Assembly: GCF_046105845.1 (NCBI RefSeq)
Contig: NZ_CP151004.1
Source of the DNA: Escherichia coli
GTDB taxonomy: Bacteria; Pseudomonadota; Gammaproteobacteria; Enterobacterales; Enterobacteriaceae
Reading direction: 5' to 3' (one strand)
Length of the DNA stretch: 64,000 nt
The position numbers were made by a program, and so were the translations under genes. The notes beneath the pieces are model-generated. The model worked only from the letters and a program-made list of their open reading frames with translations, did not search any database and had not been told where the DNA came from. Shown here piece by piece: positions 44,183-61,252 of this stretch. Within the stretch, counting starts at the first letter, position 1; the number at the start of each line of letters is the position of its first letter.

Positions 44183-44335
44183 GTTATTAACCTCCTAAAG
44201 CCTGGCGATAACACGATAATTTGCAAATCAGATATTTCCAATATCAGCATTTGTTATCAATTTATTCTGCGCTAAGGCAACTGCCTGATAAGGTGTTAGA
44301 GTTATAAAACCCTTCGCATAAAGGAGTTGTACACC

Positions 44336-45106
44336 GTGCCTGGTTTGAAGATTACGCTTTTACAGCAACCACTGGTGTGGATGGATGGTCCTGCCAACCT
44401 GCGTCATTTTGATCGTCAACTGGAAGGCATTACCGGGCGCGATGTGATCGTTCTACCGGAGATGTTTACCAGCGGCTTTGCCATGGAAGCGGCAGCTGCG
44501 TCGCTAGCACAAGATGACGTAGTGAACTGGATGACAGCCAAAGCGCAGCAGTGCAATGCGCTGATTGCAGGCAGTGTTGCATTACAAACGGAGTCTGGTT
44601 CGGTTAACCGCTTTTTGCTGGTTGAGCCGGGCGGCACGGTACATTTTTATGATAAGCGTCATCTGTTCCGCATGGCAGATGAGCATCTGCATTATAAAGC
44701 GGGCAATGCGCGAGTGATTGTGGAATGGCGCGGCTGGCGTATTTTGCCGCTGGTGTGCTACGACTTACGTTTTCCGGTGTGGTCGCGCAATCTCAACGAT
44801 TACGACCTCGCCCTGTACGTCGCCAACTGGCCTGCTCCGCGCTCTCTGCACTGGCAGGCATTGCTGACGGCCCGCGCGATTGAGAATCAAGCGTATGTGG
44901 CGGGATGCAATCGCGTCGGCAGCGATGGCAACGGCTGCCATTATCGCGGTGACAGCCGGGTGATTAATCCACAGGGCGAGATTATCGCCACCGCCGACGC
45001 GCATCAGGCAACGCGCATTGATGCGGAGCTGTCGATGGTGGCGTTGCGGGAGTATAGAGAAAAGTTTCCGGCATGGCGGGATGCGGATGAGTTTAGGTTG
45101 TGGTGA
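44336..45106 (+). CDS. yafV: omega-amidase (nitrilase-superfamily C-N hydrolase)
   Basis: Start set at GTG giving MPGLKITLLQQ... (256 aa); nitrilase-family E-K-C triad context (VCYDLRFP). Confidence 0.85.
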   Translation: MPGLKITLLQQPLVWMDGPANLRHFDRQLEGITGRDVIVLPEMFTSGFAMEAAAASLAQDDVVNWMTAKAQQCNALIAGSVALQTESGSVNRFLLVEPGGTVHFYDKRHLFRMADEHLHYKAGNARVIVEWRGWRILPLVCYDLRFPVWSRNLNDYDLALYVANWPAPRSLHWQALLTARAIENQAYVAGCNRVGSDGNGCHYRGDSRVINPQGEIIATADAHQATRIDAELSMVALREYREKFPAWRDADEFRLW

Positions 45107-45219
45107 GTGGGTGTTGTGTTTAGGGCCGGGGAGAGTCGGGGTATGACTACGAAAGCCCCTAACTTAAACACGATATTACGCCAGAAGTCACCATTTCCAA
45201 AACACAACGCCGTTGTACC

Positions 45220-45390
45220 GTGGGATATCTGCCCAACAGCAGCGACACGCCGGTGATCAAAATCAGCGCCAAATGGCTGAGAGAAGCGGGATTTGAGATC
45301 GGCACGGGCGTTACCGTGAAGATCCCGGAAGGTTGCCTGATCCTGCTTGCGGATAACAACGAAGTACAGGAACTGAGGAAGGAACTTTAT
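45220..45390 (+). pseudogene. SymE-like (AbrB-fold type I toxin family) gene fragment
   Basis: From a GTG start, ...TPVIKISAKWLREAGFEIGTGVTVKIPEGCLILLA... closely resembles the SymE core (KGQWLEAAGF.TGT.V.VKV.EGCIVL). The frame then continues for ~100 codons antisense to the convergent MucR-like gene, which I regard as non-coding read-through. 3' boundary approximate. Confidence 0.4.
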
Positions 45391-45758
45391 AAGGTTAAAC
45401 AGGCTGTCTTCAATATAGAACCGGAGCGATTACGCCAGTCAGGATCTGACTTTAGTTGCCTTCTCTTTATTCTCATCATGGCTATTTGTTCTGCGGGATC
45501 AAGCTTTCCCTTTGCTATTCTCGCCTTCATATATTCAATTTGTTTCTCCAGATATGAAATCCCTGCCAGTGCGATGTGCTTCGGTATGTTCCATTTTTCA
45601 CGATATTCGTCAGCGCGTATTCCATGCACAAACCAGATATGGCGCGGTAAAAAAATGAGCAACTTGCCACACTCCAGACAGGGTATTTTTTCCCGCTTAT
45701 GATATGCCAGAACCTCTTCACGCGTTTCGAATGGCCTGTTCCTCTCTTTTTTGTACAC
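45387..45758 (-). CDS. Ros/MucR-family zinc-finger transcriptional regulator
   Basis: 123 aa with the Ros/MucR signature IPCLECGKLLIFLPRHIWFVHGIRADEYREKWNIP (C-x2-C ... H-x4-H followed by EYREKW.LP). Confidence 0.7.
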   Translation of the reverse strand: MYKKERNRPFETREEVLAYHKREKIPCLECGKLLIFLPRHIWFVHGIRADEYREKWNIPKHIALAGISYLEKQIEYMKARIAKGKLDPAEQIAMMRIKRRQLKSDPDWRNRSGSILKTACLTL

Positions 45759-45822
45759 AAAGACTCCTTTTAAAAAATGGCAAGGTCACATATCCCTTAT
45801 TGGTACATAAATCCCCCGACGT

Positions 45823-47199
45823 TTACTGACTTTGTTCCACCTTCGTATCCAGTAAAATTACATAGCGATTCAGCAACTGATTTAACCGGGTATCTATCTG
45901 CGTCAACAGCGTCGGCGAAACCTCTCCGGTCTGTTTTTGCTCTTCCAGTTGCCGAAGCAGTTCTTCCAGCGGCGGCTCCTTTAACGACTGCCGGATGCCG
46001 TACACCGCCGTTTTTAGTTCCGAGCCGGTCAGATATCTCCCCTTACGCTCATCCAGTGCATCCAGCTGCGCCGACAGGCGCTGTAGCTGGCTTTGCGCCT
46101 GTGCGTAGCCATTCAATGCCTCAGCAGACATGGCGCTCAGCTCCCGCTGCTTACGCCACTGCGCGTTCAGCGCCCTGACCTGAGGATTATCCGGCCACAG
46201 GGCATCAAGCTGGCGTAGCTGGCGATATCCCTGCTCCAGCGGCCAGCGGGCAGGCAATTTGTTTAACTGCTCCAGCTGCATCTGACTTGCCGCAATTGTT
46301 CTGTCCTGAGCCAGCAGCGCCTTATCCTTTACATCCAGCTTTGCCAGTTCGCCGCTCTCCAGCGACTGCGGCAACGGCATGACAGACAGTTGTATTCGCT
46401 GGATTAGCGCGTCCGGCTGATTAAGCTGCGACCAGCCCCATAATCCTGTTCCGCCGAGACAGGCCATCACAACCATTCCGGCCATAAATATCGGCCATGC
46501 CCGCTGCCGGGAGATTTCAGGGGATGGCACGGATGGACTGGCATCCTTATCGTTTTGCTGAGCGGGTCTGGTTGCAAAAACCGGCTGTGGACTTTCTTCT
46601 GACTTTTTCGGTTGCTTCATTTCCTTGCGGGGTAATTCAGGGGGAGTGATAGTGGTTTCCGCTCCCTGTGGTGCCAGCCGCTCCAGACGTAGCGCCGCAT
46701 TACGAAACTGCCCGGCCAGCACATCCAGTTTCGTCATATGCCACAGTTCACACTGTTGCAGCGTGGTTTCGATGGCGGAAAGATGCTGTACACAACGGTA
46801 AATCTGCGGCAGATCCTGATACTGAATATCCAGCGTTCTCAGTGCCTGCTGCATTTTTTCTGTGACCCAGCTGAGCAGTGATATTCTGGAATGTACCTGT
46901 ACCGGCCAGAAGTCGGCCCATCGCTGGAGCAGTATGTCCAGTGAACCGAGTCCGTCTGCCATCCCTGCCAGCCCCTGCCGTCTGGTTATCGCCAGTACGT
47001 AACAGACCAGCGTCTGTAATTCCACGCCATTTTGCCGGAACAGCGCGAGGCTGAGTTTTTCCACCTGACGCCAGTCCACATCCGGTCGGGCCGGGTGAGT
47101 CAGTTTACTCATTTCAGCCTGCAGTTCACCGGATTCCTTATAAGTACAGGGATCGCCGCCCATGACGAACTGGCTGATAAAATTCGCGTTACTTGCCAT
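45823..47199 (-). CDS. TssA-family (ImpA_N domain) membrane-anchored T6SS accessory protein, TagA/VasL-like
   Basis: 458 aa; N-terminal ImpA_N-like region (GGDPCTYKESGELQAEMSKL...), one central TM helix (AWPIFMAGMVVMACLGGTGLWGW), Q/L-rich coiled-coil C-terminus; last gene of the T6SS block. Confidence 0.6.
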   Translation of the reverse strand: MASNANFISQFVMGGDPCTYKESGELQAEMSKLTHPARPDVDWRQVEKLSLALFRQNGVELQTLVCYVLAITRRQGLAGMADGLGSLDILLQRWADFWPVQVHSRISLLSWVTEKMQQALRTLDIQYQDLPQIYRCVQHLSAIETTLQQCELWHMTKLDVLAGQFRNAALRLERLAPQGAETTITPPELPRKEMKQPKKSEESPQPVFATRPAQQNDKDASPSVPSPEISRQRAWPIFMAGMVVMACLGGTGLWGWSQLNQPDALIQRIQLSVMPLPQSLESGELAKLDVKDKALLAQDRTIAASQMQLEQLNKLPARWPLEQGYRQLRQLDALWPDNPQVRALNAQWRKQRELSAMSAEALNGYAQAQSQLQRLSAQLDALDERKGRYLTGSELKTAVYGIRQSLKEPPLEELLRQLEEQKQTGEVSPTLLTQIDTRLNQLLNRYVILLDTKVEQSQ

Positions 47200-49236: not shown

Positions 49237-50951
49237 TTTCCTGTGGGTTGCAGAATTAAGGTCAGTTGAGTGAATAAGTGGATATCGGCATACAGTGCGA
49301 AGAAGCGGTGCAGCAGTTCACCAAACAGTGTGATATCACCTTCTCCGGCAAAGCCGTTACTGTCCAGCGTTACCTGAATATCCACGCCACGCAGCAGAAA
49401 GCCTCTTTCAAAACGCTGTATCAGGCTGTGCTGAACGTCGACAATCGCCTCCAGACGACGGCGGTTCATCTCGCTTTCGGTCCAGTCGTACAACGCCAGC
49501 GTGCCGCGCACAATTTCGGCGTTATCCATCATCGATAAAAAGTTAGAACCAAGGTGGCTGAGCACCCGCCAGTGGAAGCGGTCACGCGCCGGGGGATAGC
49601 AGGGCTGCGTCGGGGCGCACAGGTTGCGCACCCGCAGGACGTTCTGTGAGGCGTGGACTGGCGTATCGAGTAGCGTGCTCTGTAAAGCTTTACGGGGAAG
49701 CTGCCCGTTAGTGCCGGTCAGACTTAAGGACAGAGTTTCATCCTCCAGCATCCGGTCAGAATCAAACGCATCGCCGCCCAGAATCAGCCAGGTATCATGC
49801 AGGCCGGAAGGGCCGCGCTTAACCCGCGTATGGTAATAACGTTCCGGCGCATCGTGGCGCAGCATCCCGCCCCGGTGACGAAAGCTGGAGAATGGCACAT
49901 ACGCCTGACTGCCGGTATGGCGCGAAGAAATAATGTTGTCGACGGAATAAATCTCGGTATGCCCGTCCTGAATTCGCATCGGGCGCAGCAGAAATTCGTT
50001 TTCCAGTGGCGAAAGGTGTAACGGATCGGCTTCCAGCGGGAACAGGTTGATAACCGGCACGCAGTGCAGGCGGAGATTGTCGGTATTAAACGGCAAATCA
50101 TGAGGCCAGCTTTCCGCCAGCACCACGTCAATCTCAAAGCCGGTTATCCCTTCCGGCCAGATGACGTTCTCCAGCCCGTTGAGTGCCACAAACATAAACT
50201 TCTCGCGGAAGGTGAAATACTCCAGCAGCAACTGGTAGCCGCTGAACGCCGACTCGCCTTTTGGCCAGAGCCTGTCATTATCCTCAAAGCCCAACGGGGA
50301 AAAGTGTGCGTCAAGCGTCCGGCGATCCTGCCCCGGCAGACGCAACCAGAACTGCTGCGTACCAAGCGTTAAAGCCCGGTGCAGCGCACAGGCCACCGGA
50401 CTGTCGGCATTGAGATAGAGCGGCAGGCGGGATAAATCGATCTGTGACCAGTCACCGACCAGCGGGCCGCATTCAAAGCGCAGACGAATAACCGAACGTC
50501 CGTCCGGTTCATATTGCAATGACACGTCCGGCAACGCCAGCGGATGCAGCGTGATATCCCGCGTGGCGCTGTAGAAACAGCGGGTTCTGCGCTCGCCAAC
50601 AGGGCGCGACAATACCTGAAAATCGCTCAGCGTTTCGCTCTGCTTCATCTGCCGGTGATCTGTCGACAGTTCAACCACGGAAAGTGACGGGATAGTTCGC
50701 AGGTAGTGAGGCCACAGCAGGCTGACCAGCCCTTCAGTCAGCTCCGGCAGATCGTCGTCCAGCTTCTCGCGCAGGCGGCCCATTAAAAAAGCAAAGCCTT
50801 CGAACAGGCGTTCCACATAGGGATCGCGTGCGCCGGGTTTATCAAGATTGAGCATCGCGGCGCGGTCGGGGTAAGCCTGCGCAAATTCTTTCCCCGCTTC
50901 ACGCAGGTAGCGCATTTCGGCTTCGTAGTAGCGTTGGGTTAAGTCGTCCAT
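49191..50951 (-). CDS. tssF: T6SS baseplate protein TssF
   Basis: About 590 aa; start placed at the ATG of MDDLTQRYYEAEMRYL (the ORF track begins at an upstream TTG, 50990); tssF-tssG pairing. Confidence 0.75.
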   Translation of the reverse strand: MDDLTQRYYEAEMRYLREAGKEFAQAYPDRAAMLNLDKPGARDPYVERLFEGFAFLMGRLREKLDDDLPELTEGLVSLLWPHYLRTIPSLSVVELSTDHRQMKQSETLSDFQVLSRPVGERRTRCFYSATRDITLHPLALPDVSLQYEPDGRSVIRLRFECGPLVGDWSQIDLSRLPLYLNADSPVACALHRALTLGTQQFWLRLPGQDRRTLDAHFSPLGFEDNDRLWPKGESAFSGYQLLLEYFTFREKFMFVALNGLENVIWPEGITGFEIDVVLAESWPHDLPFNTDNLRLHCVPVINLFPLEADPLHLSPLENEFLLRPMRIQDGHTEIYSVDNIISSRHTGSQAYVPFSSFRHRGGMLRHDAPERYYHTRVKRGPSGLHDTWLILGGDAFDSDRMLEDETLSLSLTGTNGQLPRKALQSTLLDTPVHASQNVLRVRNLCAPTQPCYPPARDRFHWRVLSHLGSNFLSMMDNAEIVRGTLALYDWTESEMNRRRLEAIVDVQHSLIQRFERGFLLRGVDIQVTLDSNGFAGEGDITLFGELLHRFFALYADIHLFTQLTLILQPTGKCLQWTEHHSQRVPG

Positions 50952-51026
50952 CGGAGGATTTATCTTTCCTTTTATTGAAATTAATACCAACGAGTAGTGA
51001 GATTAGAATTTTTTATTTTCAGAATC

Positions 51027-51431
51027 CTAAGGACATATAGATGGATCATTTATTTCAAAAGAAAAATCGGACTCCATACTAGATGAGGATTTTTTCAATA
51101 AAGAGGAGATATGATATCCAGATAAAGTTTTAGAATTGTTACCATCAGATATCAAAATACTAAGTTCAGAAACAATATTTACAGGGTTTTTATTAAAAAC
51201 ATCTGACTCTCTACCTGTGTAAATAAAGTATACAATTGGCTTCCGCTCTCCGATATCAAGATGAAAATTATCTCTTACTTTACCATCATAATGTGTTGAA
51301 TTATTGACCGTCGAAATGTTAATAGATACTTTGCATGTATTTACCATGACAATGGAACAAGAATAGAATGGTTGAGATAAACATCCAGCACACAGCGTAC
51401 ATAATAAAAAAAAGAATATTAATCTAGTCAT
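51027..51431 (-). CDS. lipoprotein-like secreted protein; candidate immunity protein for the upstream PAAR toxin
   Basis: 134 aa; N-terminal signal peptide with Cys cluster (MTRLIFFFLLCTLCAGC...); start overlaps the stop of the PAAR-HExxH gene by 8 nt; AT-rich. Confidence 0.4.
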   Translation of the reverse strand: MTRLIFFFLLCTLCAGCLSQPFYSCSIVMVNTCKVSINISTVNNSTHYDGKVRDNFHLDIGERKPIVYFIYTGRESDVFNKNPVNIVSELSILISDGNNSKTLSGYHISSLLKKSSSSMESDFSFEINDPSICP

Positions 51432-52863
51432 GAAATTTCACCCGAGATAACCATATCATTGCACATACATCGTTTTCGACAGCAACCGACCTTGCATATA
51501 GATCACTGGTGTATATATGCCCATTATAATATTTCATTAAATCTATCTCGCCAGTTCCTGGATAAACTGAATGAGGCAGTGCATATTGAGGTGGTACAAG
51601 ATTAGAGGTCCCTTTATGCTCCCATGAATACGTATTCCCACCGTAACTTTTTAATATCATATGACCAGTCTCATGGGCTACATCAAGTTTAAATTCTAAT
51701 CCAGCCTTAAAAACAGGATCCGCGCCTTTCTGATACCCACGGCCATATTCATAATACCCCCTATTGAAATAAATGTTCATACGTCCCATAAAAGCACTAG
51801 ACCTGACGCTTTCTAGATCTTGCTCCTCAATTAAATCAAAAGAATCCATGGCTGGATCAATATTTATTGATACAGAGATATTTACATTATATTTACCGTG
51901 CGGAGTAGTAATATTATTGCCAATTCCGGGATTCCTCATTCCATTTCGTGCCCAATAATACTCTATTCCATCCTTGGCAAGTTGCTTTAATTTTTCAAAC
52001 CCTACAGGTGCAATACGATCATCTTTATGACTCACACCATCATCTTCAAATTCTACTCGCCAACTGACATCAACTATTTTTTGATTCTTGTCTACTTTTA
52101 CATCAATCCAATCTTCCTCATTCGCAGAAGTTTTCAATGGATAATCAACTTTTATCATCATATCACCACATAAAGCAATCAGTCTTACGAGTAGTGATTT
52201 GCTTTTTAGCTTAGTTGTATCCAGTATGTCTTGATTACTGTAGCCATCCCATTGCCAGGCATGCTCTCCCTTATCAAAATATTTACCGGTCTGCTGTTCA
52301 CTATAAATCACTTCATTACCATCAAGCACTTCCAGAGAAAGCGCTTCAGCCTCATCGCCTTTATTTGTGATGGTAAAATCTATTTTTTCTGTATTCTTCG
52401 TACTACCACCGCTAATCATTTCTTTATAATCAGGTATATTCAATGGCGTCAGTATCTTATTACCTGATAATTTAATTCTGTAATCCAGTTTTACATCATC
52501 TGAGGATGAATCAGAACCAGAAGTCAGATCCTTTTTCGCCGACTGCGCATGTTGTTCCGCTTCACTTCCCCCGTCATCCGTCTCATACACATCATCCATC
52601 ATTGACGCAATAAATCGCGCCTTACACGGGCAACTGCTCTGACTGTCCAGCGATCCCGCCATCAGCCTGCCGTGAATATCCGTTTCCGGCACGCCGCCGA
52701 CGATAATAAACATCCCCGAATGTTTACCGCAGGTCACTCTGTCCATATCCCGCGCCTGCGGGATACCCATGATCGTATGGTCGTCCGCCCCTTCAATAAT
52801 TTTGCCGCCGCAGGTGGTCTTATCGCCCCTGACCAGAAAATAGCCTCTTCCCATCGTCATCAC
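51424..52863 (-). CDS. PAAR-domain protein with C-terminal HExxH (putative zinc metallopeptidase-like) toxin domain
   Basis: 479 aa. The N-terminal ~90 aa fit the PAAR pattern (RGDKTTCGGKIIEGADDHTIMGIPQARDMDRVTCGKHSGMFIIVGG); then an acidic/Ser-rich linker; the C-terminal region contains HETGH. Start overlaps the tssA stop. Confidence 0.65.
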   Translation of the reverse strand: MMTMGRGYFLVRGDKTTCGGKIIEGADDHTIMGIPQARDMDRVTCGKHSGMFIIVGGVPETDIHGRLMAGSLDSQSSCPCKARFIASMMDDVYETDDGGSEAEQHAQSAKKDLTSGSDSSSDDVKLDYRIKLSGNKILTPLNIPDYKEMISGGSTKNTEKIDFTITNKGDEAEALSLEVLDGNEVIYSEQQTGKYFDKGEHAWQWDGYSNQDILDTTKLKSKSLLVRLIALCGDMMIKVDYPLKTSANEEDWIDVKVDKNQKIVDVSWRVEFEDDGVSHKDDRIAPVGFEKLKQLAKDGIEYYWARNGMRNPGIGNNITTPHGKYNVNISVSINIDPAMDSFDLIEEQDLESVRSSAFMGRMNIYFNRGYYEYGRGYQKGADPVFKAGLEFKLDVAHETGHMILKSYGGNTYSWEHKGTSNLVPPQYALPHSVYPGTGEIDLMKYYNGHIYTSDLYARSVAVENDVCAMIWLSRVKFHD

Positions 52864-59126: not shown

Positions 59127-59504
59127 TTACTCTGATACATTTATGGTATATATTTTGCCAAACCGTCCTCTGCCACCACCACCTATGGAGAATCCTCCGA
59201 TTTCAATGACTATCGCCCCTTTTACAACAGGGATACCCTGAACAATAAGGCAACTATTTTGGTCTGGCTCAAAAACATCAATAGTCAAACCCGAATTCTC
59301 AGGCCTGAAATCTTTCAATGGAAAAAAAGGTACAGGCCCAACTCCTCCTGAAATCTCGATTTTTGCATAGTAACTCTGACCTAATTTTGCATCAGGCAAG
59401 GAGTCTGGGGAAACAGTAGTTTTTGGGATGATTAGCATATGTAAACATCCAGTTAGTGATATTGATAATGAACATATGAGTAAAAATTGAATTGTCTTTT
59501 TCAT
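59127..59504 (-). CDS. small lipoprotein; candidate immunity protein
   Basis: 125 aa; lipoprotein signal MKKTIQFLLICSLSISLTGC; ATGA start/stop overlap with the upstream gene; Gly-rich C-terminus; AT-rich. Confidence 0.45.
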   Translation of the reverse strand: MKKTIQFLLICSLSISLTGCLHMLIIPKTTVSPDSLPDAKLGQSYYAKIEISGGVGPVPFFPLKDFRPENSGLTIDVFEPDQNSCLIVQGIPVVKGAIVIEIGGFSIGGGGRGRFGKIYTINVSE

Positions 59505-60361
59505 GACTTGTTAGTGTCAATGTCAATATAAACCTGATTGGATCTAATGTTAAATTTATCTTCAAGTTTTTCACCCGACATATCAAGATTTAGCAGTAAT
59601 TTTTTAATTCCATCGTCGTTATTATCACCTAAGCATGAATTATCTGGTTCGAGGTGGCTATTATCTTTATTAAAGAAGCATATGTATTTCTGGCTCAATA
59701 GATTAAACATTTTTTTATAGATGCGCTGCCGAACAAGCCATTGTTCATTGACAAACGGATATTCAAGAGTACCTACCTTGTAACGCCGTAAGCCCGGCGG
59801 AAAAGCATATAAAGATTTATTCAAATAAATACTGACAACATACTTTTCCCCGGATTTAATCTCGAACCAGTTTCCAGAATCAGGATCGTCATCATAGCCA
59901 TTACAAAATGAACCCAGAAAATCCAGTCTTGAGTTATCAGTAATAATAAGAAAGTCTTGTTTACATGATGAGGTATATGCCATGTCTTGTTTATTTTTTT
60001 TAAAAAAAGTCAGAAAAATATCAGGAAGATAGAATGAATGGTGGCTTTTATTTTCAAATTCTATAGTCATTACAACTTCTTTTTTAGATTTTTGCTCTGC
60101 AAATAAACGGATAAACATGTTGATTTCAGACTGTAGCTTTTTATTTTCTTTATCATCCAATAAGTATCCTGGTGAGAGGAAAACATACTTCTCATCATCA
60201 CGTAATGGATAAAAAAAAGGTGAGTCAGTTACTATTCTGCTTTCCCCATAACCATAACCATACTTCTTAAAAACCAGTAAGTCATCGGCAATTGAATTAA
60301 GTGAAAACAGCAATAAGAAACAAAAAATTGCATAATTAATAAATTTACTAAATGTATGCAA
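59501..60361 (-). CDS. secreted protein of unknown function; candidate immunity protein
   Basis: Start placed at the TTG 7 nt after GAAGGAGG, giving the signal peptide MHTFSKFINYAIFCFLLLFSLNSIA; the ORF track's longer version starts at 60397. Very AT-rich. Confidence 0.45.
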   Translation of the reverse strand: MHTFSKFINYAIFCFLLLFSLNSIADDLLVFKKYGYGYGESRIVTDSPFFYPLRDDEKYVFLSPGYLLDDKENKKLQSEINMFIRLFAEQKSKKEVVMTIEFENKSHHSFYLPDIFLTFFKKNKQDMAYTSSCKQDFLIITDNSRLDFLGSFCNGYDDDPDSGNWFEIKSGEKYVVSIYLNKSLYAFPPGLRRYKVGTLEYPFVNEQWLVRQRIYKKMFNLLSQKYICFFNKDNSHLEPDNSCLGDNNDDGIKKLLLNLDMSGEKLEDKFNIRSNQVYIDIDTNKS

Positions 60362-60448
60362 AATAACCTCCTTCAATAAAAAATCAAAAAAAAACACAAG
60401 TTACATTTTACTCTAAATATAACTTGATTGATTAACAATTAAAGAAGA

Positions 60449-61252
60449 TTACTCGGGTGGTGGTGGGGGATTATTATCAACTATAATTTTTAAATCCTTA
60501 CTCATGTCCTCTTCCACAGATTTTTTTATATCTATTAAAATCTCTTCATTCAGAGCTATCTGAAAATATTTCTCAACATTATAAGCACTTCTGAAAACGG
60601 CCTGATTGTGTTGACTAACCATTGTTTTTGCAGCAGCCAAATGAGCATCACCACTCATAAATGCCGGTTTCCCTTGCGCATTCATATCATGTGTGCTCAT
60701 TCCACCACCAATACCACCTTTGCCGGTCCTACAAAAATGAGACATTTCATGACACAGCGTTGAAACCTGAGAATCAACACCACATAATGGTTTGTCCTTA
60801 AACTTTCCAGCTATAAAAATATGATAATCTTTATCAATAAATTCATTAACTCTGGCAGTGAAATTCCCACATACCGTATTATTAATATAATAGCAAGTTA
60901 ACACTCCATCCTTATCATATCTGAACATTTGATTATGAATTGTTTTAATCCTCTTGATACCATCCTGCATTATTAACAATGCAGTCTGTTTAGTTTCATC
61001 ATCATCTCCTATCAATTCATCACCTTTGGTGCCAAATATTTTATAAAACTCGCTTATCTCTTTTTCCTTCCCCCCCTTATTCCAACCCTCAAGAGAATGT
61101 TCGCGAATCTCAAGAACTTTTTCTTGGGCTTTGTGTGCTCGTAATATCATCTCTTTAAATTTATTAGTAATAACAACTTCAGCGACACAAATCTCTACAG
61201 TAGCTGGAGCTGGAGCTGGCTTGCCGTTTGATATTTTATTTCCCATATACAT
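60449..61252 (-). CDS. VgrG-adjacent protein with HExxH motif; candidate T6SS effector (putative metallopeptidase-like)
   Basis: 267 aa starting 6 nt after the vgrG stop (alternative ATG at 61246 has better RBS spacing). No signal peptide; contains CHEMSH followed by a Gly-rich segment; Pro-rich termini (PAPAPA, PPPPPE); AT-rich. Confidence 0.5.
   Translation of the reverse strand: MYMGNKISNGKPAPAPATVEICVAEVVITNKFKEMILRAHKAQEKVLEIREHSLEGWNKGGKEKEISEFYKIFGTKGDELIGDDDETKQTALLIMQDGIKRIKTIHNQMFRYDKDGVLTCYYINNTVCGNFTARVNEFIDKDYHIFIAGKFKDKPLCGVDSQVSTLCHEMSHFCRTGKGGIGGGMSTHDMNAQGKPAFMSGDAHLAAAKTMVSQHNQAVFRSAYNVEKYFQIALNEEILIDIKKSVEEDMSKDLKIIVDNNPPPPPE

Follow-up and report, generated by a model that had tools for sequence, protein, structure and literature searches.

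A probable decay scar of truncated mucR-like and SymE-family genes at the edge of a T6SS island in Escherichia coli

The yafV-proximal boundary of the T6SS island occupying the yafV-aspV interval in one lineage of Escherichia coli is very likely a decay scar, at which a SymE-family gene and a mucR-like gene, both truncated, lie joined tail to tail. The scar was studied in a 64,000-nt stretch of E. coli DNA (contig NZ_CP151004.1 of assembly GCF_046105845.1), which is referred to here as the window. The gene order around 45 kb of the window is fadE, ivy, yafV, a 160-codon frame on the plus strand, a 123-codon ORF on the minus strand, and vasL, beyond which the minus strand carries tssE, tssJ, tssG, tssF, and more T6SS genes. 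The 123-aa and 160-aa ORFs overlap convergently (45387..45702), and vasL is located upstream of the mucR-like gene on the same strand with a gap of 64 nt between them. The first-pass annotation had assigned these coordinates, strands, and the convergent overlap correctly, and its placement of the locus at the island edge was borne out by a comparison of genomic contexts. Two truncated genes joined tail to tail represent ordinary gene decay rather than a new regulatory arrangement, and the Ros/MucR and SymE families are both known and already annotated. The features of the locus are collected in Table 1.

Table 1. Features at the yafV-proximal edge of the T6SS island (positions in the window).
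Feature	Position	Strand	Basis or remark
yafV, 2-oxoglutaramate amidase	44336..45106	+	core gene flanking the island; 98.6% identity to ETEC1738 yafV (L003 3247-4017)
SymE-family gene remnant	45164..45407	+	Pfam SymE_toxin; alignment to D6 (L026 3994-4287), ETEC1738, and F2_81
Partial Rfam Ssr1 match (3' ~225 nt), antisense to the SymE remnant	45190..45445	-	below gathering score
160-aa open frame, SymE remnant plus mucR antisense	45220..45702	+	judged a chance fusion, no gene
isrA-like match nested in the Ssr1 match	45240..45323	-	below gathering score
3'-truncated mucR-like gene, 123 aa, GTG start	45387..45758	-	Pfam ROS_MUCR
Deletion or illegitimate-recombination junction	45407..45408	.	shared base T at 45407; three-way alignment and blastn
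Shine-Dalgarno AGGAG, 5 nt 5' of the mucR GTG	45764..45768	-	read from sequence
vasL, ImpA_N/VasL domain protein, last T6SS core gene	45823..47199	-	annotated homologues; Pfam ImpA_N and VasL on an identical gene

The breakpoint was located at 45407|45408, with one shared base, by a three-way alignment and by pairwise blastn, in which window 44300-45407 is 98.6% identical to ETEC1738 and window 45407-46000 is 98.8% identical to E24377A. The segment 45090-45407 is found as yafV followed by a "SymE family type I addiction module toxin" at 99.7% identity in ETEC1738 and two related strains, and the segment 45407-45900 was recognized by megablast as the pair "MucR family transcriptional regulator" and "VasL domain-containing protein" in many genomes at 98.6-99% identity. 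Among 5426 complete E. coli genomes, megablast returned no place that covers at least 80% of 45050-45900, and in none of them do an intact symE and an intact mucR stand side by side at yafV; the contexts of the other mucR alleles are different loci. Seven other contigs match the window without a difference over 731 nt that span the junction (45100-45830), and an eighth, short contig contains the same 60-nt junction sequence. All 8 contigs shown, of the 14 with the 123-aa protein, have the context tssG-tssJ-tssE-vasL-mucR'-yafV-ivy-fadE. An assembly artefact was considered as the origin of the junction and rejected, because the junction is the same in independent assemblies and read sets. Since the scar-bearing copies are identical to each other, the lack of further decay is uninformative on selection.

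A single deletion or illegitimate-recombination event would have joined the two convergent genes tail to tail, cutting both of their 3' ends at a cost of 15 codons to SymE and of 65 codons, including the helix-turn-helix, to MucR. The annotation made from the sequence had instead proposed that insertion of the MucR-like gene, or of the whole island, disrupted a SymE-type locus. This proposal has to be abandoned, as both genes are cut at one and the same junction, mucR being left without its last 65 codons, and as the SymE copy at yafV is already 5'-truncated in genomes that never received this T6SS cluster.

On the plus-strand side of the junction, residues 5-42 of the 160-aa frame match the Pfam family SymE_toxin (PF08845) with an E-value of 1.1e-9, which is significant and not a chance match, so that the SymE-like N-terminus described at the outset is real. 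The homology to a 97-aa SymE-family gene begins at codon 4 (window ~45164), just after an in-frame TAA at 45160, and the 3' end is cut at the breakpoint; the remnant therefore corresponds to codons 4-82 of the 97-codon gene, and the native ATG, Shine-Dalgarno, promoter, and last 15 codons are gone. The copy in D6, in comparison, is 97 aa long and has an ATG and a GAGG ribosome-binding site. In the window, ETEC1738, and F2_81 alike, sequence flanking yafV replaces the native start, ribosome-binding site, and upstream region, and the SymE-family gene at yafV was already without its start codon, ribosome-binding site, and promoter before the junction event. The gene in ETEC1738 is annotated with 77 aa, and the window is without its last 15 codons and the hairpin after it. 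No intact SymE gene of ~160 aa was found in related genomes, where the intact forms have 77-97 aa, and the frame in the window is accordingly a fragment, as had been supposed. SymE-family genes that are ~95% identical occur at up to 6-8 places per genome, in convergent orientation behind the final small ORF of an Rhs toxin/immunity array.

The remnant shares the AbrB-like SymE core with the SymE/SymR system of E. coli K-12, in which SymE has 113 aa and is SOS-induced. However, it is one of a group of shorter paralogues (77-97 aa) that are positioned convergently at Rhs array ends, and its match to the NCBIfam model for endoribonuclease SymE (NF010128; model positions 32-88, E 3.5e-9) reaches 36.5 bits, far below the equivalog cut-off of 132 bits. 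It also differs from the K-12 system in being truncated at both ends and in having neither a LexA box nor a SymR match: a scan of 45100-45220 upstream of the remnant gave no LexA-box-like site, and Rfam gave no SymR match over the remnant. Neither a promoter-like site nor a Shine-Dalgarno was found upstream of it, and a scan of 44900-46100 for promoters and terminators yielded one promoter-like and one terminator-like site, which is no more than in shuffled sequences. From these features we infer that the SymE remnant is dead.

Two readings would nevertheless give the plus-strand side of the scar a function. In one of them, the 160-aa frame is genuinely coding, its product being a toxin derived from SymE that has gained a hydrophobic tail, given that its 160 codons are uninterrupted and that the SymE core in residues 5-42 is kept. 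This is extremely unlikely, because the native start is gone, nothing resembling a promoter, a LexA box, or a Shine-Dalgarno precedes the frame, and its tail is an antisense frame that was already open in mucR. In the intact mucR of E24377A, the same antisense frame is stop-free for 157 codons, which explains the 160-aa ORF. In addition, the exact 160-aa sequence is absent from a collection of 15 billion proteins, and gene callers called the frame on none of the 8 junction contigs shown. The frame is thus judged to be a chance in-frame fusion of the SymE remnant with the antisense of mucR, and not a gene. The other reading assigns the function to neither protein but to an antisense RNA over the SymE remnant that resembles Ssr1 or IsrA. 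Ssr1 of Shigella flexneri and IsrA of Salmonella SPI-6 are both described at the ends of Rhs/T6SS islands; in S. flexneri, Ssr1 was mapped to the interval that separates an Rhs gene from a hypothetical ORF (PMC4782007), and IsrA is the cis-antisense partner of STM0294.1n, with which it shows an inverse expression pattern (PMC2330248). The antisense strand of the window does align with both: the minus strand over the remnant matches the 3' ~225 nt of the Rfam family Ssr1 (RF02627) at 192.9 bits and, weakly, isrA (RF01385) at 31.8 bits. However, both matches stay below the gathering scores of 820 and 51, respectively, and the window has lost the ~400 nt of the Ssr1 model on the far side of the breakpoint, which make up most of it and contain the mapped 5' end, whereas the intact locus of E. 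coli TB06052 (L004 5101-5755) gives a near-complete Ssr1 match of 766.8 bits. Moreover, with the target gene already dead, an antisense regulator would have nothing to control. The antisense RNA is therefore a very unlikely explanation, although transcription of the T6SS strand would now run antisense over the SymE remnant towards yafV, and any antisense transcript in the window would presumably come from this T6SS/mucR' strand. As for TB06052 itself, the Ssr1 match spans the last small ORF of the Rhs array and the symE antisense. Ssr1 looks there like the mRNA of this last small ORF (106 aa, L004 5430-5750), the 3' end of the transcript crossing the SymE-family gene in antisense, rather than like an independent intergenic sRNA.

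On the minus-strand side of the junction, residues 20-79 of the 123-aa ORF match positions 60-119 of the 123 positions of the Pfam model ROS_MUCR (PF05443) with an E-value of 1.8e-11 and 44.6 bits, confirming that the Ros/MucR signature is no product of chance; NCBIfam and PHROGs matched no family to the protein. The zinc site has the spacing C27-x2-C30-x9-H40-x4-H45. The exact 123-aa protein is present in RefSeq as "MucR family transcriptional regulator [Escherichia coli]" (WP_409023507.1) and was read on 14 contigs, one of them of 4.74 Mb. Its intact counterpart in E24377A, the terminal gene of the vasL-type T6SS island, is a gene of 549 nt encoding 182 aa (WP_000276887.1), which has the same vasL upstream, the same 64-nt spacer, and the same start, and which differs in its site, amiC instead of yafV. 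Codons 1-117 of the window copy (45408..45758) are homologous to the 182-codon gene and are followed by 6 codons and a stop taken from symE-derived DNA (45387..45407). The window copy consequently keeps the Ros-type Cys2His2 finger and is without codons 118-182, and so without the C-terminal helix-turn-helix. Its first 117 codons are 97% identical to those of E24377A, with 3 amino-acid differences; the 3 non-synonymous changes and 1 synonymous change are too few to judge selection.

Because the AGGAG and the GTG start are intact, the mucR remnant may still be translated, following transcription with or after vasL, into a finger-only protein of 117+6 residues. The function of such a product is probably impaired or lost. 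Alternatively, the truncated 123-aa protein might still work as a finger-only regulator, perhaps with an altered or dominant-negative effect on the T6SS island, and this has a small but appreciable chance of being correct. The zinc ligands and the whole Ros-like domain are kept, the frame behind the intact start is uninterrupted, and several independent samples carry the allele. The zinc-finger domain alone is reportedly the DNA-binding unit in Ros87, according to the work on the 2JSP structure, for which reason a finger-only product could still bind DNA. On the other hand, the helix-turn-helix that was lost is as conserved across the family as the finger, the persistence of the allele may reflect only recent clonal descent given that the scar copies are identical, and mucR has been lost repeatedly elsewhere. 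Ordinary decay is still the favored account of the mucR side.

In an alignment of 16 homologues, C27, C30, H40, and H45 are invariant. A C-terminal block comprising W131, S134, R155, E160, I165, L176, Y177, and W179 is nearly invariant and conserved down to 51% identity, and a C-terminal three-helix helix-turn-helix (~141-181) is found in 15 of the 15 full-length homologues and is absent from the window copy. The full-length homologue matches ROS_MUCR with an E-value of 3.2e-11 and Pfam HTH_23 at residues 141-181 with an E-value of 4e-4, and HTH_Tnp_1 is among the precomputed matches of its relatives. An AlphaFold2 model built from 25 sequences (mean pLDDT 90) predicts a finger at residues 20-82, a helical linker at 88-133, and a three-helix bundle at 142-181. 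The best fold match of this model in the PDB is Ros87 (2JSP; Foldseek probability 1.00, target-normalised TM 0.52 over 71 columns), at an E-value of 0.011 that is weak owing to the small size of the domain; small helix-turn-helix domains, including the N-terminal domains of IS-type transposases, come after it. The sequence-based comparison of the family profile with 2JSP gives an E-value of 7.4e-11, and the zinc ligands are aligned to CLECG...RH....H. The homologues have 182-189 aa and occur in E. coli, Salmonella enterica, Cronobacter turicensis, and a few others. In an exhaustive search of 1.84 billion cluster representatives, the full-length architecture was found in only about ten clusters, and the finger alone in 647 representatives at E-values up to 0.001, often in multi-repeat proteins.

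The enterobacterial protein has the same Cys2His2 domain (C-x2-C-x9-H-x4-H) as Ros of Agrobacterium and MucR of Sinorhizobium, Brucella, and Caulobacter, and it shares the motif EYREKW(N/D)(I/L)P with these alpha-proteobacterial proteins. Unlike them, it carries the finger at its N-terminus, and, when intact, it adds the helical linker and a C-terminal transposase-like helix-turn-helix. Model positions 1-59 remain unmatched, and residue 1 falls close to the beginning of the Ros87 fragment in the alignment, from which it can be deduced that the enterobacterial protein is without the N-terminal part of classical MucR/Ros. In alpha-proteobacterial MucR, this N-terminal region carries the higher-order oligomerisation behind the H-NS-like behaviour. 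On the basis of its domains and genomic setting, the intact 182-aa protein most likely recognizes specific DNA sequences and is linked to the T6SS island in a regulatory or an island-maintenance capacity; it is probably no oligomerising silencer. A literature search on a MucR family regulator in E. coli, or on MucR together with T6SS, returned nothing relevant.

The full-length gene, which is carried by strains such as E. coli W, E24377A, and O103:H2 12009, was detected in 246 of the 5426 complete E. coli genomes, and its context is vasL-mucR-amiC-argA-recD in every one that was read. A Ros/MucR protein had been described as unusual in E. coli, which is an overstatement in view of this number and of the name given by PGAP. 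The Salmonella homologue, with 77% identity, is found in the same vasL-mucR-amiC-argA-recD context, and an E. coli allele with 86% identity (GCA_043343895.1; L037 5001-7608) stands after vasL at a third site, beside dkgB/yafC-type genes. In this genome, Cas1-like and AcrVA2-like genes follow directly after the full-length mucR at the T6SS island end. In Cronobacter (57% identity) and in a 53%-identical relative, the gene is at the other end of the T6SS cluster, divergent from tssB, and ICE-type genes (ArdC, TraI_2) are on its other side; in Cronobacter turicensis (L030 6001-11418), the gene lies between tssB and GlgS, ArdC-N, TraI_2, and HNH genes. The Cronobacter position is a hint that the finger plus helix-turn-helix protein may belong to a mobile element instead of the T6SS. 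A 43%-identical relative has a mobile-element setting that includes an antirestriction gene and lacks a T6SS, and the closer members of the intact family always adjoin a T6SS cluster in the contexts read. Linkage to the T6SS in three genera supports the view that the intact gene encodes a DNA-binding protein that goes with the island; a T6SS regulator and a factor of the mobile element carrying the island fit this linkage equally well. The proposal of an island-encoded regulator can accordingly be retained in part: the full-length homologue is T6SS-linked in E. coli, Salmonella, and Cronobacter, whereas nothing supports the silencer role and the copy in the window is truncated.

The gene is also prone to loss at this island end: of the complete E. 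coli genomes in which the end is retained, about two thirds are without mucR. In strain MEW (L025), where the yafV-aspV interval is likewise occupied by this T6SS island, an ISAs1 fragment leaves only the first 87 nt (29 codons) of mucR, and symE is absent. In JJ1886 (L042 3501-3540), only ~32 nt (~11 codons) of mucR are left beside vasL, and several hundred other complete genomes give the same 38-40-nt mucR remnant match. The window contains a third, independent truncation of mucR. The JJ1886-type remnant is followed by a block of sugar-metabolism genes (PTS, MalY, KpsF, and phosphoglycerate dehydrogenase), and its T6SS cluster has decayed as well, tssJ being partial and an IS66 being present. 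With regard to the sites of the vasL-type T6SS island, most carriers have it at amiC/argA, and yafV-aspV is its site in the window and in 2 of the 5426 complete genomes. A different T6SS/Rhs array, with symE at its end, takes up the yafV-aspV site in ETEC1738 and several other genomes.

By itself, the scar is of little importance, being a textbook case of island-edge decay that also produced a long antisense ORF by accident. Of more consequence is that a Ros/MucR-type finger combined with a helix-turn-helix travels with one type of T6SS island in E. coli, Salmonella, and Cronobacter, so that such fingers can no longer be regarded as foreign to E. coli. The intact gene is a reasonable candidate for a T6SS regulator, and the literature search found no paper on this finger plus helix-turn-helix subfamily. 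It is tempting to go further and regard the intact 182-aa protein as dedicated to regulating or maintaining the vasL-type T6SS island in Enterobacteriaceae and the finger-only allele as a naturally occurring separation-of-function variant with retained DNA binding and an effect on T6SS expression; taken as a whole, this combined proposal is speculative and rather improbable.

A last alternative to decay is that an intact, island-borne Ros/MucR xenogeneic silencer was inserted into the SymE locus and silences the AT-rich cargo DNA of the T6SS island. The finger is indeed of the Ros/MucR type, the gene accompanies the T6SS island across several genera and at three sites in E. coli, and SymE is indeed disrupted, all of which agree with such a silencer. 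However, the gene is not intact, 65 conserved C-terminal codons being gone, and the N-terminal Ros/MucR region, through which alpha-proteobacterial MucR oligomerises, is absent, with only model positions 60-119 matched. The regulator had been said to flank AT-rich T6SS cargo genes directly. In fact, the GC content of the adjoining DNA from vasL to tssF, which includes core T6SS genes, is 0.53-0.60, and the AT-rich blocks are 5 kb and 14 kb away from mucR. Furthermore, mucR is missing from some two thirds of the complete E. coli genomes that keep this island end. This alternative is thus quite improbable, and the decay scar remains the preferred reading of the locus. The two AT-rich blocks, at 50800-52600 and 59200-61000, have a GC content of 0.30-0.38 in an otherwise GC-rich T6SS island. 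Their ORFs 51424..52863, 59501..60397, and 60449..61252 gave no NCBIfam match and presumably represent effector/immunity cargo; at the matching places, strain MEW is annotated with a colicin E3/pyocin S6-type cytotoxin and an M35 metalloendopeptidase.
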